From Chloroflexota bacterium (lineage in GTDB: Bacteria; Chloroflexota; Anaerolineae; Anaerolineales; UBA11858): a DNA stretch of 64,000 nucleotides. The notes under the pieces are model-generated. The model worked only from the letters and a program-made list of their open reading frames with translations, did no database searches and was not told where the DNA came from. The stretch is taken from positions 1,066 to 65,065 of the forward strand of contig JABGRQ010000077.1 in assembly GCA_018648225.1 (NCBI GenBank), written 5' to 3'. Below, in pieces: positions 17,613 through 20,450 of this stretch. The first letter of the stretch is position 1. The number at the start of each line of letters is the position of its first letter. Made by a program: the position numbers and the translations under genes.

Positions 17613-20450
17613 ATGAATTTAACCGTAAATGGAAAACCAGTTCAAATTGAAGCTCAGCCGGGCGAGACCCTGGCCGATATGCTGCGTAAACGCCTGAAAT
17701 TAACCGGCACCAAAATTGGTTGCGAAGAAGCCGAATGCGGAGCCTGTACCGTGCTGGTGAATGGCGATCCGGTAGTATCTTGCACCTACCCCGCGGCGCG
17801 CGCCGACGGGAAAGAAATCTTGACGATTGAAGGTTTGGCAGCCTTCACCTCTGTGCCCCTCTCCCTGCCCCCTGCGGGGGTGCTCCGCGAGGAGAGGGGT
17901 TGGGGTGAGGGAGAAAATCTCCACCCCCTTCAGGAAGCCTTCATTACCCACGGCGCGGTCCAATGCGGATTTTGTATTCCCGGCCAAATTATGACCGCAC
18001 ATGCTTTGCTCGAAAAAAATCCCAAAGCAACCTCCAAAGAAATCCGCTACGCGCTCAAAGATACGCTCTGTCGCTGTGCCGGGTATCCTTCTATCGAAAA
18101 TGCGATTCTGGCCGCCGCCCATTCGCTGCGTACTGGTGAGCCGGTTCCTGAACCCCAAATTGACATCTCTGCTGAACCGCTGCACACCGTTGGCGATCTC
18201 AACATCCGCCCGGATGCGGTAGAAAAAGTGACCGGCGAGGCCATCTACACCGACGACCTTGTTTTTGACGGGATGCTCTTTGGGCGTGTCAAACGTGCCG
18301 ATATTCCGCACGGCATCCTCACCCGCCTCGATGTTGACGCGGCGCGTGCCCTCCCCGGTGTCCTGGCTGTGCTGACCGCTGCCGACATCCCCGGCGAAAA
18401 GCGGCATGGCATTGTGATTACCGATTGGCCGGTGCTAGTTGATGTAGGGGAGCGTGCCCGTTATGTCGGTGATGCCGTCGCGGTTGTGGCTGCCGAAAGC
18501 GAAACAATTGCCGAACATGCTCTCAGCCTGATCGAGGTGGAGTTCGAAGCTCAGGAAGTCATTGACAACCCCGTGCGCGCCCGTCAGGACGACGCGCCGC
18601 ACCTGCATGAAAAAGGCAATCTACTCAAGCATATCAAAGTTCGTAAGGGCAATATGGATGCCGGTTTTGCTGAGGCAGACCATATTTTTGAACACACTTT
18701 TTATACACAAACCACCGATCACGCTTTCCTTGAGCCAGAATGTACTGTGGCGCGCCCACTCGAAAATGGGCGCATGGAAATCTATGTCGGTTCCCAAATT
18801 CCCTACGCCGACCGTTCCCAGGTCGCCGCGACGTTGGGCTGGCCTGACGAGCGCGTGCGTGTACGTGGCCAACTCATGGGTGGCGGCTTTGGCGGCAAGG
18901 AAGATATTGCTGGGCAGATTCACGCTGCGCTGCTGGCGAATGCTACTGGCAAGCCCGTCAAACTGCTTTTTGACCGCCACGAAAGCCTGATGGTGCATCC
19001 CAAGCGCCACGCCACGCAAATCCATGTCAAGGCCGGTGTGATGAACGATGGGCGTCTCTTGGCTGTTTCCACCGAACTTTATGGCGATACCGGGGCTTAC
19101 GCCTCACTCGGCGAGAAGGTCATGGGGCGTGCCACCACGCACTCCTCCGGGCCGTATGATGTCGAACATATGCGCGCCGACTGCTACGCCATGTACACCA
19201 ACAATCCTCCCTCGGGTGCGTTCCGCGGTTTCGGCGCGTTGCAAGGCCAGTTTGCCATCGAAAATTTGATGGATCGTATTGCCGAGGCGCTGGATATGGA
19301 CCCTGTGGAAATTCGCCGCAAAAATGCTTTGCGTGTAGGCAGCACAACGAACACTGGTCAATTGTTGCGCGAGAGTGTTGGATTGGAAGAGTGCATTGAT
19401 AAGGTAGATGCCGAAATGCGCCGCCTTGCCAAAGCGGATGGCTATGAATCGCCATTTAAGCCCAAAGTTGATTCTGCTGAATCTGGAAAAGTTCGCTCCT
19501 GGGGTTTTGCCGTGGCCTATAAGAACACCGGCCTGGGTGGGGGCGCGCCCGATAAAGCTGGCGCCGAAGTTGAGTTATTCCGTGACGGCACCCTCGAAGT
19601 GCGTACTGCCTCCGCTGAACTCGGTCAGGGTTTGGTGACGGTATTGCAAATGGTCGTCGCTGAAGAATTTGCTCTCACCCCGAAAAATGTCAAAGTTCTG
19701 GTCATGGATACTGACCTGACCCCCGATGGCGGCCCGACGACTGCCTCGCGTCAGACCTATGTGACTGGCAACGCGGCGCGCTATGCTGCCAAAACCTTAC
19801 GCGAAGCGATTGCTACCTCGCTGGCCGAAAAATACGATCAGCCGCCCGATAATATTCGTTTTGAAGAAGGGTTGGCGCGTGTGAACGGGCAGCAAATCCC
19901 GCTGGGCGATGCCGTCGAAATTATGCAGGCTGAGGGTCGCCAGGCCAAAGCCATGTACGAATATTGGGCGCCCGATACCCTCCCGCTGGGCGAGGGCGGC
20001 GATATGCACTTCGCCTTCTCATTTGCGGCTCAGGCCACCGAAGTGGAAGTAGACAAGCGCACCGGCGAAGTAAAAGTGCTGCGCGTCATCGCTGCCAATG
20101 ATGTTGGCAAAGTTATCAATCCGTTGGGATTGCAAGGCCAAATCGAAGGCGGCGTTGTAATGGGCGTCGGCCACGCCCTGACCGAGAATTTCATCGTTGA
20201 GCAGGGCATCCCTTTCACCGACTATTTGGCGCGCTATCGCATGCCCAACATCACCCAGACTCCAGAGATCATCTCATATGTGGTTGAACACCTCACCACT
20301 GATGGCCCCTATGGAGCGAAAGGGGTTGGCGAAATTGTCAGCATCCCCACCATCCCGGCAATAACGAATGCCATCTACAACGCTGTGGGTGTGCGCATCG
20401 ATCGTTTGCCGGTCGATCAAGAAGAAATTGTGAAGGGAATAGGCGTTTAG
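17613..20450 (+). CDS. XDH-family fused [2Fe-2S] + molybdopterin-binding subunit, set 1 (XdhD-like)
   Basis: GCEEAECGACTV...SC and CGFCIPG...CRCAGY cluster motifs. GGGFGGKED, FRGFGALQG and GAKGVGE molybdenum-domain motifs. The ATG is 1 nt after the FAD-subunit stop. Confidence 0.9.
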   Translation: MNLTVNGKPVQIEAQPGETLADMLRKRLKLTGTKIGCEEAECGACTVLVNGDPVVSCTYPAARADGKEILTIEGLAAFTSVPLSLPPAGVLREERGWGEGENLHPLQEAFITHGAVQCGFCIPGQIMTAHALLEKNPKATSKEIRYALKDTLCRCAGYPSIENAILAAAHSLRTGEPVPEPQIDISAEPLHTVGDLNIRPDAVEKVTGEAIYTDDLVFDGMLFGRVKRADIPHGILTRLDVDAARALPGVLAVLTAADIPGEKRHGIVITDWPVLVDVGERARYVGDAVAVVAAESETIAEHALSLIEVEFEAQEVIDNPVRARQDDAPHLHEKGNLLKHIKVRKGNMDAGFAEADHIFEHTFYTQTTDHAFLEPECTVARPLENGRMEIYVGSQIPYADRSQVAATLGWPDERVRVRGQLMGGGFGGKEDIAGQIHAALLANATGKPVKLLFDRHESLMVHPKRHATQIHVKAGVMNDGRLLAVSTELYGDTGAYASLGEKVMGRATTHSSGPYDVEHMRADCYAMYTNNPPSGAFRGFGALQGQFAIENLMDRIAEALDMDPVEIRRKNALRVGSTTNTGQLLRESVGLEECIDKVDAEMRRLAKADGYESPFKPKVDSAESGKVRSWGFAVAYKNTGLGGGAPDKAGAEVELFRDGTLEVRTASAELGQGLVTVLQMVVAEEFALTPKNVKVLVMDTDLTPDGGPTTASRQTYVTGNAARYAAKTLREAIATSLAEKYDQPPDNIRFEEGLARVNGQQIPLGDAVEIMQAEGRQAKAMYEYWAPDTLPLGEGGDMHFAFSFAAQATEVEVDKRTGEVKVLRVIAANDVGKVINPLGLQGQIEGGVVMGVGHALTENFIVEQGIPFTDYLARYRMPNITQTPEIISYVVEHLTTDGPYGAKGVGEIVSIPTIPAITNAIYNAVGVRIDRLPVDQEEIVKGIGV
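17855..17913. repeat. GC-rich palindromic element inserted in frame in the XDH set 1 gene
   Basis: CCCCTCTCC (17856-17864) is the exact reverse complement of GGAGAGGGG (17891-17899). The tail GGGGTGAGGG is shared with the cofE copy. Confidence 0.7.

Follow-up and report, generated by a model that had tools for sequence, protein, structure and literature searches.

How does a palindromic, GC-rich repeat come to lie in frame within a conserved redox enzyme, and how is it kept there? The question is raised by a molybdenum (Mo) hydroxylase gene in a 64-kb stretch of DNA (hereafter, the window; contig JABGRQ010000077.1 of a Chloroflexota bacterium), in which an earlier note had described a palindromic 59-nt sequence at 17855-17913 (+ strand) as an element that had landed in the linker between two [2Fe-2S] domains. 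Judged by its blocks, this linker segment is a rearranged copy of the G/C-rich repeat called BoxC, PIT or 'triplex motif' (TM), and we file it as a variant rather than as a literal copy of TMECO, the E. coli form. It probably derives from an old in-frame insertion of a BoxC/TM-type element into a permissive linker, where it would be translated as a disordered loop, locally unstable and tolerated as a passenger. For the source genome the analysis covers the window, and the genome and metagenome scans were each run once.

A BoxC/TM-type repeat between two [2Fe-2S] domains

The host gene (17613..20450, +, 945 aa) encodes a protein of the xanthine-dehydrogenase family in which two [2Fe-2S] domains are fused to the Mo-cofactor-binding subunit. 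Its open reading frame (ORF) most likely starts at 17613 (MNLTVNGKP...), directly downstream of the gene for the flavin adenine dinucleotide (FAD)-binding subunit (16733-17611), and the product matches the Pfam families Fer2 (residues 4-53), Fer2_2 (97-165), Ald_Xan_dh_C, MoCoBD_1 and MoCoBD_2. Both the ORF and the Pfam matches confirm that the insert lies in frame between the conserved motifs TIEGL and LHPLQEAF, where it encodes AFTSVPLSLPPAGVLREERGWGEG. Compared with a minimal linker, the inserted segment occupies 17841..17915 (+, codons 77-101, AFTSVPLSLPPAGVLREERGWGEGE), and the Fer2_2 match resumes at residue 97, after the insert. The repeat itself (~17842-17911) lengthens the linker by about 21-22 residues ('about 24' in the earlier note). 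Predicted tryptic peptides spanning the insert are ADGKEILTIEGLAAFTSVPLSLPPAGVLR and GWGEGENLHPLQEAFITHGAVQCGFCIPGQIMTAHALLEK.

Shorter linkers are found in the available reference points. Across solved structures the two [2Fe-2S] domains are separated by 3-6 residues, and the small subunits 5y6q_A, 4zoh_C and 3hrd_D have 3-4 residues opposite query residues 77-102. The metagenome scan returned mainly distant relatives, which were used as outgroups and not as close comparisons; most of these (80 listed, 50-66% identity) have a linker of 6 (e.g. SENGA) or 10 residues (e.g. AQRVHEEMK). A short-linker paralogue is indeed present in the window, as had been reported: the unexpanded linker of this [2Fe-2S] protein (35716..35760, +) is TVEGLAQPERLHPVQ, within the sequence TVEGLAQPERLHPVQDAF. 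In an AlphaFold2 model built from 67 orthologues (mean per-residue confidence, pLDDT, of 80; pTM 0.85), residues 82-100 of the host protein have pLDDT <50 and are without secondary structure, while the flanks reach at least 87. On this model the insert would form a disordered loop at the surface, where the two [2Fe-2S] domains are joined, in agreement with the surface position proposed at the outset.

The 59-mer is present once in the window, and its 9-nt arms, CCCCTCTCC (17856-17864) and GGAGAGGGG (17891-17899), are exact reverse complements separated by 26 nt. Although its location had been given correctly, the element begins before the noted 59-mer, as an outer arm extends it to 17842 and the whole spans about 17842-17911. 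The palindromic form of the family consists of four blocks, in the order C-block, C-block, loop, G-block, G-block (CCCTCACCCC, CCCCTCTCCC, GGGAGAGGGG and GGGGTGAGGG), and all four positions can be followed in the linker copy. The outer C-rich block, CCTTCACCTCT (17842..17852, +; consensus CCCTCACCCC), is degenerate; it aligns with GCCCTCGCCCC / GCCCTCTCCCC of three orthologous loci (L001, L002 and L208) and, in the folds, pairs with 17902-17911 around the inner hairpin via two G-T/G-U positions, so that the outer arms form inverted repeats. The inner C-rich block CCCCTCTCCC (17856..17865, +), which is also found in the pan-bacterial motif, provides the 5' hairpin arm and is followed by an enlarged central loop of 25 nt. 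Within this loop, sequence and folds indicate a nested small hairpin, CCCCC-TGC-GGGGG (17868..17880, +), that is missing from L002 and L208, whose loop is 3 nt. The inner G-rich block GGAGAGGGG (17891..17899, +) forms the 3' arm and, 2 nt past it, the outer G-rich block GGGGTGAGGG (17902..17911, +), the 'third strand' of BoxC/TM, corresponds to the block that makes up the third TMECO stem, GGGTGAGGG (PMC4666352, Table 1). Across the element, stop codons are absent from two of the three frames on the gene strand and from all three on the other strand. An 11-nt direct repeat, GGCAGCCTTCA/GGAAGCCTTCA, was considered as a target-site duplication and rejected, both copies being conserved coding sequence (AAF/EAF).

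The palindrome of the linker copy beats chance only moderately (RNA fold of -49.3 kcal/mol, z = -2.6); what makes it significant is thus its match to a known family of repeats rather than the hairpin by itself. BoxC of E. coli was renamed PIT element and then TMECO, a G/C-rich class II intrastrand triplex motif (Holder et al., NAR 2015, PMC4666352, where earlier repeat work by Bachellier and by Hoyne and Maher is cited). TMECO amounts to 3610 copies across 262 proteobacterial genomes, is without association to transposons, phages or plasmids and, in E. coli K-12, has 23 copies 'always located intergenically'; the triplex of the E. coli motif was not seen in duplex DNA or in vivo (PMC4666352). 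Our comparison with E. coli rests on Table 1 of that paper (such as CCCTCTCCCTGTGGGAGAGGGCCGGGGTGAGGGC of type B and ...GGGGAGAGGGTTAGGGTGAGGGG of type A); a BLAST search of the cofE unit described below against E. coli genomes gave weak intergenic matches only (E about 0.6), probably because of the low-complexity filter. The blocks of the window copies are identical to those in Table 1, they follow in the same order (CCCTCNCCC - loop - GGGNGAGGG - short loop - GGGTGAGGG), and both published loop types (CCG/CCA and TT(A)) occur, TT in the linker copy and CCA in the cofE copy. Inverted or palindromic arrangements and the lack of a known transposase are further likenesses, as are hypervariable loci whose small indels keep hairpin potential: E. 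coli TM loci are strongly hypervariable among strains, with small deletions that preserve it (PMC4666352), and it is kept in L001, L002, L208 and L210. On the other hand, the stems in the window are of 10 nt and those of TMECO of 9, a further C block at the 5' end and a central loop of 25 nt distinguish the linker copy, the host is a member of the Chloroflexota whereas TMECO was counted in Proteobacteria, and both window copies lie in frame inside Pfam-supported genes, unlike the intergenic copies of E. coli K-12.

The earlier note had also reported that the 3' tail of the palindrome recurs in cofE, and this proved correct. The gapped pattern GGAGAGGGG-N2-3-GGGGTGAGGG has two matches in the window, at 17891 and, inside cofE, at 23560, with 0 expected (100 shuffles), and links the two copies where ungapped searches did not; exact and 3-mismatch searches of the window with the 59-mer and a 21-mer found the element itself only. 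With a three-block pattern and relaxed loops, 17857-17911 and 23547-23581 match with 1 mismatch each, and nothing else does in 64 kb. Beyond the window, a scan for CCCTCACCCC-N2-4-CCCCTCYCC in one genome per species matched at least 120 loci, the matches listed including Chloroflexota, Planctomycetota, Acidobacteriota, Cyanobacteria, Armatimonadota, Xanthomonas, Pseudomonas, Dyella and others. Among the matches listed, 140/152 are followed by the inner-arm complement no more than 45 nt away, usually after a loop of a few bases, and 8 also have the outer G block after it, like the linker copies. The suggestion of a dispersed palindromic repeat is thereby borne out; the element is neither private nor new, as the family to which it belongs, BoxC/PIT/TM, had already been described (PMC4666352).

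The second copy lies in cofE (23185..23973, +), the gene for F420-0:gamma-glutamyl ligase (Pfam F420_ligase, E = 1.4e-76). Here a canonical single 36-nt unit, CCCCTTTCCCC-GC-GGGAGAGGGG-CCA-GGGGTGAGGG (23546..23581, +), encodes SPFPAGEGPGVR in frame, in the loop following NAGIDHSN. The unit peptide, typically VDSPLPxGEGxGVRAEDWV, is recognisable in 56/120 Chloroflexi CofE relatives (63-100% identity), the others having 9-14 residues in that loop, and its variable positions coincide with the DNA loops. At the DNA level four orthologues were compared (window, L002, L214 and L216; 63-83% identity): the codons read TCC CCT xTC CCx xxG GGA GAG GGG CCA GGG G/ATG AGG and are unchanged at synonymous positions. 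On this codon evidence the cofE unit is conserved as a DNA motif and not as a peptide alone, which is hard to explain by drift. The loop is not uniform in all relatives: in L214 a type-B unit is followed by a type-A-like unit, and in L209 the loop (L209:11182-11238) contains a different, AT-richer palindrome with 26-nt arms.

Turnover of the linker and origin of the insert

The word 'landed' implied a recent insertion, which the orthologues do not support. Among the 120 closest database proteins (70-93% identity, from metagenome-assembled genomes (MAGs) of Anaerolineales/Chloroflexi), 13 have at most 10 residues between TIEG[L] and HPLQ, with 6-7 in P0007, P0018 and P0027; the rest (about 107) have 13-34, with almost no sequence conservation, so that the overall range is 6-34 aa. 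In 30 of the 120 the linker opens with xxL[TSA]P, which is what the outer C block (GCC CTC NCC CC) encodes, and the closest relatives carry variants of the repeat. When the linker is masked, an approximate neighbour-joining tree often pairs sequences whose linkers are unrelated, and linker content is patchy on it; the query groups as (P0007 with 6 residues, (P0002, (P0001, query))). Two wholly different linker haplotypes occur even inside one 90% protein cluster. In the comparison of orthologues, which had been proposed as a check, most of the 50-66% outgroups have linkers of 6-10 residues and the close orthologues mostly long ones, with differing sequences.

Syntenic loci were obtained for nine orthologues. 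L002 (88% identity) reads CCCTCGCCCC-AT-CCCCTCTCCC-ATT-GGGGGAGGGG-CGCA-GGGGTGAGGG at the same codons, L208 has the same four blocks, L001 (93% identity) carries a 123-nt version with a 16-nt perfect stem, and L210 has another hairpin variant; the four-block hairpins of these loci give shuffle z values of -5 to -8.7. L209 (GCA_016783125.1) has at 6110-6160 an AT-richer palindrome, CCTAACTCCTAACTCCTATC / GATAGGAGTGATGAGTTAGG, with 20-nt arms, whose outer arm aligns with the GC-rich one and which shows paired substitutions on both arms. Others appear on the way to decay or beyond it. The linker of L207 (P0008) contains at 10250-10275 the hexamer (GGGTTA)x3, encoding RVRVRVR, beside a decaying 3' arm; L211 and L212 are of similar linker length with no significant structure (z = -0.4), L212 retaining the 5' arm; and L213 (P0007) has a minimal linker. 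Finally, the distant lineages L012, L005 and L073 have independent hairpin inserts at the same linker, L012 with PLPLGEGPGVRA. As a separate observation, a CCCCTCTCCC-GCC-GGGAGAGGGG hairpin is found at L019:6693-6715, inside the Mo-binding part of a related hydroxylase gene, and the long reading frame switches there (4866-6896 and 6653-7186), through either an out-of-frame insertion or an assembly error.

The comparison of the window with L001 shows how narrowly this variation is confined. Outside the linker the two genes share 91-92% DNA identity with 0 gaps over 2754 nt; inside it, identity drops to 53% with 30 gap columns in 105, and every indel of the gene falls within the linker, which is thus hypervariable even among 93%-identical proteins. 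Compared with L002, the outer blocks are in the same frame and the inner blocks in a different one, suggesting compensating indels inside the linker. Taken together with the outgroups, these sequence comparisons indicate that the long linker is derived for the family, old within the clade and subject to quick turnover. Because relatives carry other repeat variants at the same site, the insertion would be old and the present 59-mer a rearranged derivative of it.

These observations fit a simple sequence of events. In an ancestor of this Anaerolineales clade, the repeat would have become coding sequence within the linker between the domains; transcription and translation of the gene would then have turned it into a Pro/Gly/Glu-rich disordered surface loop that the enzyme tolerates. 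As DNA, the repeat would make the site prone to slippage and template-switch indels, and selection may demand no more than that the overall frame stays open, precise excision being rare, so that the insert is kept. An indel-prone repeat under selection for frame only would be expected to produce linkers that differ even between 93%-identical proteins and often keep hairpin potential.

Several results weigh against this account. The DNA fold of the linker copy is weak (+ strand, z = -1.7; - strand, z = -0.5). The literal TMECO expression, CCCTCNCCC-N3-6-GGGNGAGGG-N3-GGGNGAGGG, is unmatched with up to 1 mismatch in the window, L001, L002, L208, L214 and L216, because the stems are of 10 nt (counted with 9-nt stems, the second loop spans 4-6 nt) and the linker copy has a first loop of 25 nt. 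As to copy number, the two copies in 64 kb exceed the 0 expected, as the earlier note would have it; neither the window nor about 930 kb of related loci, on the other hand, yielded an intergenic copy, the only matches falling at the linker site, the cofE site and one further intragenic site, so that a dispersed, currently mobile family is not evident in this lineage. The polarity of gain followed by decay would rest on the outgroups and on shared remnants of the arms, close orthologues being nearly all long. In cofE, rare codons (AGG, GGG, GGA, CCT and CCA) are kept across the four orthologues, AGG accounting for 2-7% of Arg and GGG for 17-29% of Gly codons in these genomes, which is unexpected of a purely neutral passenger. 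Lastly, the L209 palindrome would need a hairpin-preserving process or a replacement; a second copy of its AT-richer palindromes (linker and cofE) was not found in 18.7 kb of the L209 locus.

The strongest alternative, which we nevertheless regard as unlikely, is that the linker is an ancestral, fast-evolving region of low complexity in which the palindrome arose in situ, for example by template-switch copying of an arm, with no insertion at all. It would agree with the prevalence of linkers >10 residues among the 70-93% orthologues, with the lack of intergenic copies nearby and with the several non-palindromic lineages of similar length (L211 and L212). It does not readily account for blocks that match a pan-bacterial repeat exactly, including the non-palindromic third block and its 2-3-nt spacer, for the same unit inside cofE, or for separate copies in the same linker of unrelated lineages (L012, L005 and L073); moreover, the outgroups and solved structures have short linkers.

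It is more doubtful still that the linker hairpin is a selected nucleic-acid element, i.e., that an mRNA or DNA hairpin or triplex serves to slow ribosomes between the two Fe-S domains, to stabilize the mRNA or as a protein-binding or recombination site. The synonymous rare codons of the cofE unit would be in keeping with such a role, as would hairpins that persist in several lineages despite sequence change, the paired substitutions of L209 being a case in point, and the fold of the sense-strand RNA is the strongest, because two arm changes are C-to-T and retain G-U pairs. Yet in the linker the hairpin is lost or decayed in close, nested relatives (P0007 and P0018, with 6-7 aa; L207, L211 and L212), for which reason a conserved functional mRNA hairpin was ranked low; linker length ranges over 6-34 aa, the linker element has no match in Rfam, and PIT/TM elements have no promoter, terminator or polymerase-blocking activity in vivo (PMC4666352). 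A function of the Pro/Gly/Glu-rich loop as a peptide, such as docking of a partner or of the FAD subunit, is very improbable: the insert does stay in frame in many lineages, but it is hypervariable between 93%-identical proteins, absent in nested relatives and predicted to be disordered, and conservation tracks the DNA blocks and loops rather than peptide properties. A chimeric contig or collapsed repeat is scarcely credible, for although GC-rich hairpins are hard to sequence and assemble, the identical 945-aa protein was found on 15 independent contigs (JGI, ENA, NCBI and Logan assemblies) and syntenic relatives hold variants at the same site.

An old, tolerated in-frame insertion thus remains our preferred explanation, and it would have several consequences. 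BoxC/TM units, described as strictly intergenic, can persist for long inside essential-looking enzymes; in the Mo-hydroxylase the repeat creates a natural hot spot of length variation between redox domains, and in CofE a single 36-nt unit became a widespread 12-residue loop. For annotation, caution is advisable with peptides like PLPxGEGxGVR or PSPRPSP, which are repeat-derived.

DUF559 genes and the spread of the repeat

To our knowledge, BoxC/PIT/TM repeats have gone unexplained for 30 years. Among the loci that were selected for the repeat, all three DUF559 ORFs (in L088, L106 and L107, each from a different phylum or class) have inverted repeat units on both sides, and no DUF559 ORF is present in 970 kb of other loci or in the window. 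The protein, ycjD and viral-contig samples that follow were chosen independently of the repeat. In a profile search, 56/120 DUF559 proteins have a unit-type peptide (PSPRPSP, PHPNPLPxGER or PLPQAGEG) in their last 30 residues, against 1/120 Mo-hydroxylases with the linker removed and 1/120 CofE proteins with the loop removed; the peptide patterns used for counting are heuristic, with these controls near zero. Perfect two-block units lie within 200 nt of 4/34 full-length DUF559 loci from viral contigs. In E. coli K-12, ycjD (L217, NC_000913.3 1351204-1351760) is the single gene of the region that is annotated as DUF559; a degenerate unit covers its stop codon, and TMECO no. 9 is found 168 nt away, with a partial duplication of the ycjD 3' end in between. 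Nearly perfect terminal inverted repeats of 43-95 nt, made of BoxC/TM units, are found at L106:5590-6035, L107:6395-6995, L219:1330-2000 and L223:1320-1930. The association of DUF559 with BoxC/TM is a direct observation, and no paper linking the two was found in the library searched.

DUF559 cassettes may also be able to enter inter-domain linkers in frame. In a betaproteobacterial MAG (CAVPKE010000004.1; L088:1777-4515, - strand), the ORF of methionyl-tRNA synthetase (913 aa) reads TM-TM-DUF559-TM in one frame, all of it in the linker that joins the anticodon-binding domain to the C-terminal tRNA-binding domain; the DUF559 endonuclease domain is complete (aa 671-780). An isoleucyl-tRNA synthetase ORF (L191, +, 1027 aa) contains repeat-type peptides in frame, RPLSPRGEGARAGG around aa 330 and SARPSPPTPSPPGGGGS in the stretch that connects the catalytic with the anticodon-binding domain. 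In-frame matches of this kind were accepted only with Pfam domains on both sides, as many long stop-free frames in GC-rich genomes are probably spurious.

DUF559 has the Vsr-like PD-(D/E)XK nuclease fold (PMC3424549), which is also used by EDxHD homing endonucleases such as I-Bth0305I (PMC3239194), and one DUF559 gene has been assigned to the EDxHD homing family (PMC9403480). Tentatively, and with less than even confidence, we suggest that BoxC/TM units are the terminal inverted repeats of DUF559 cassettes, and that solo and paired units, including the linker and cofE copies, are derivatives or footprints of such cassettes, comparable to miniature inverted-repeat transposable elements (MITEs). 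DUF559 would in that case mobilise the repeat, and the window copies might have arrived in this way; recognition of the ends by the endonuclease would explain both a repeat that is near-identical from E. coli to Chloroflexota and the rare codons of cofE that do not drift. As for MITEs, candidate autonomous partners (DUF559 cassettes with terminal inverted repeats of the same units) exist in other genomes, none being in the window. DUF559 is in any case a testable candidate for the long-missing protein partner and, if confirmed, would explain the origin and spread of a very widespread bacterial repeat.

The putative system resembles others in part. With EDxHD/Vsr-like homing endonucleases it shares the fold and the nature of small selfish nuclease genes; known members, however, reside in group I introns or inteins, whereas DUF559 cassettes are free-standing ORFs between 43-95-nt inverted repeats. 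REP/REPIN sequences, which are mobilised by RAYT transposases (IS200/IS605-like, Y1), are likewise short GC-rich hairpin repeats, often in inverted pairs and usually extragenic, whose non-autonomous units outnumber the candidate protein partner; they differ in that the motif described here has a third, non-palindromic block and that the co-occurring partner is a DUF559 Vsr-like nuclease, not a Y1 transposase. No RAYT genes were noticed among the Pfam-scanned genes, no search having been aimed at them.

Rickettsia palindromic elements (RPE), the precedent named in the earlier note, are reportedly found in frame in protein genes, as described by Ogata and colleagues in 2000 and by Claverie and Ogata in 2003. 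The functional analogy is a fair one: in both cases a palindromic repeat is translated in frame in a surface-exposed region of a conserved protein and is present in some orthologues and absent from others, and the linker insert lies between Fer2 and Fer2_2 with the conserved domains undisrupted. RPE are about 100-150 bp long, AT-rich and found in Rickettsia and its relatives, as opposed to the 36-70-nt, GC-rich, pan-bacterial element; a relation in sequence is not expected, and given these differences of composition and length we do not claim membership. Since the repeat family and in-frame palindromic repeats (in Rickettsia) were already known, no new principle is involved. What is new is that BoxC/TM units of Chloroflexota lie in coding sequence and in frame, that they recur in the same two loops, that conservation in cofE is at the DNA level and that the repeat is associated with DUF559.

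Other features of the window

Two other kinds of palindrome were observed. The intergenic hairpins at 45895-45956 and 49397-49459, downstream of long genes, belong to one family (AGACCTCCGAGGTTTT ... AAAACCTCGGAGGTCT) with perfect arms of 15-16 nt and loops of 30-33 nt, a repeat different from BoxC/TM. The palindrome at 13190-13245, with perfect 28-nt arms (CCAAAAAAGGGGGTGTGCC.../...GGCACACCCCCTTTTTTGG), is flanked by convergent or neighbouring genes and resembles a bidirectional terminator; sequences like it are found again in a relative, at L209:10059-10114 and 18103-18155.

An unusual fusion is encoded at 42770-45886 (+), where an ORF of 1038 aa combines serine hydroxymethyltransferase (aa 87-425) with the aminomethyltransferase domain GCV_T (aa 639-905). 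The host gene of the insert is itself part of a larger region (16733-45000) with several xanthine-dehydrogenase-family sets (17613-20450; 28946-31975; 34474-35961 with 39490-41721). These interleave with a cluster for F420 biosynthesis and usage (F420_oxidored, cofE, PNPOx, nitroreductase, cofD, cofC and a luciferase-like gene) and a DUF6909 gene (37709-39421), and the synteny is conserved in relatives.

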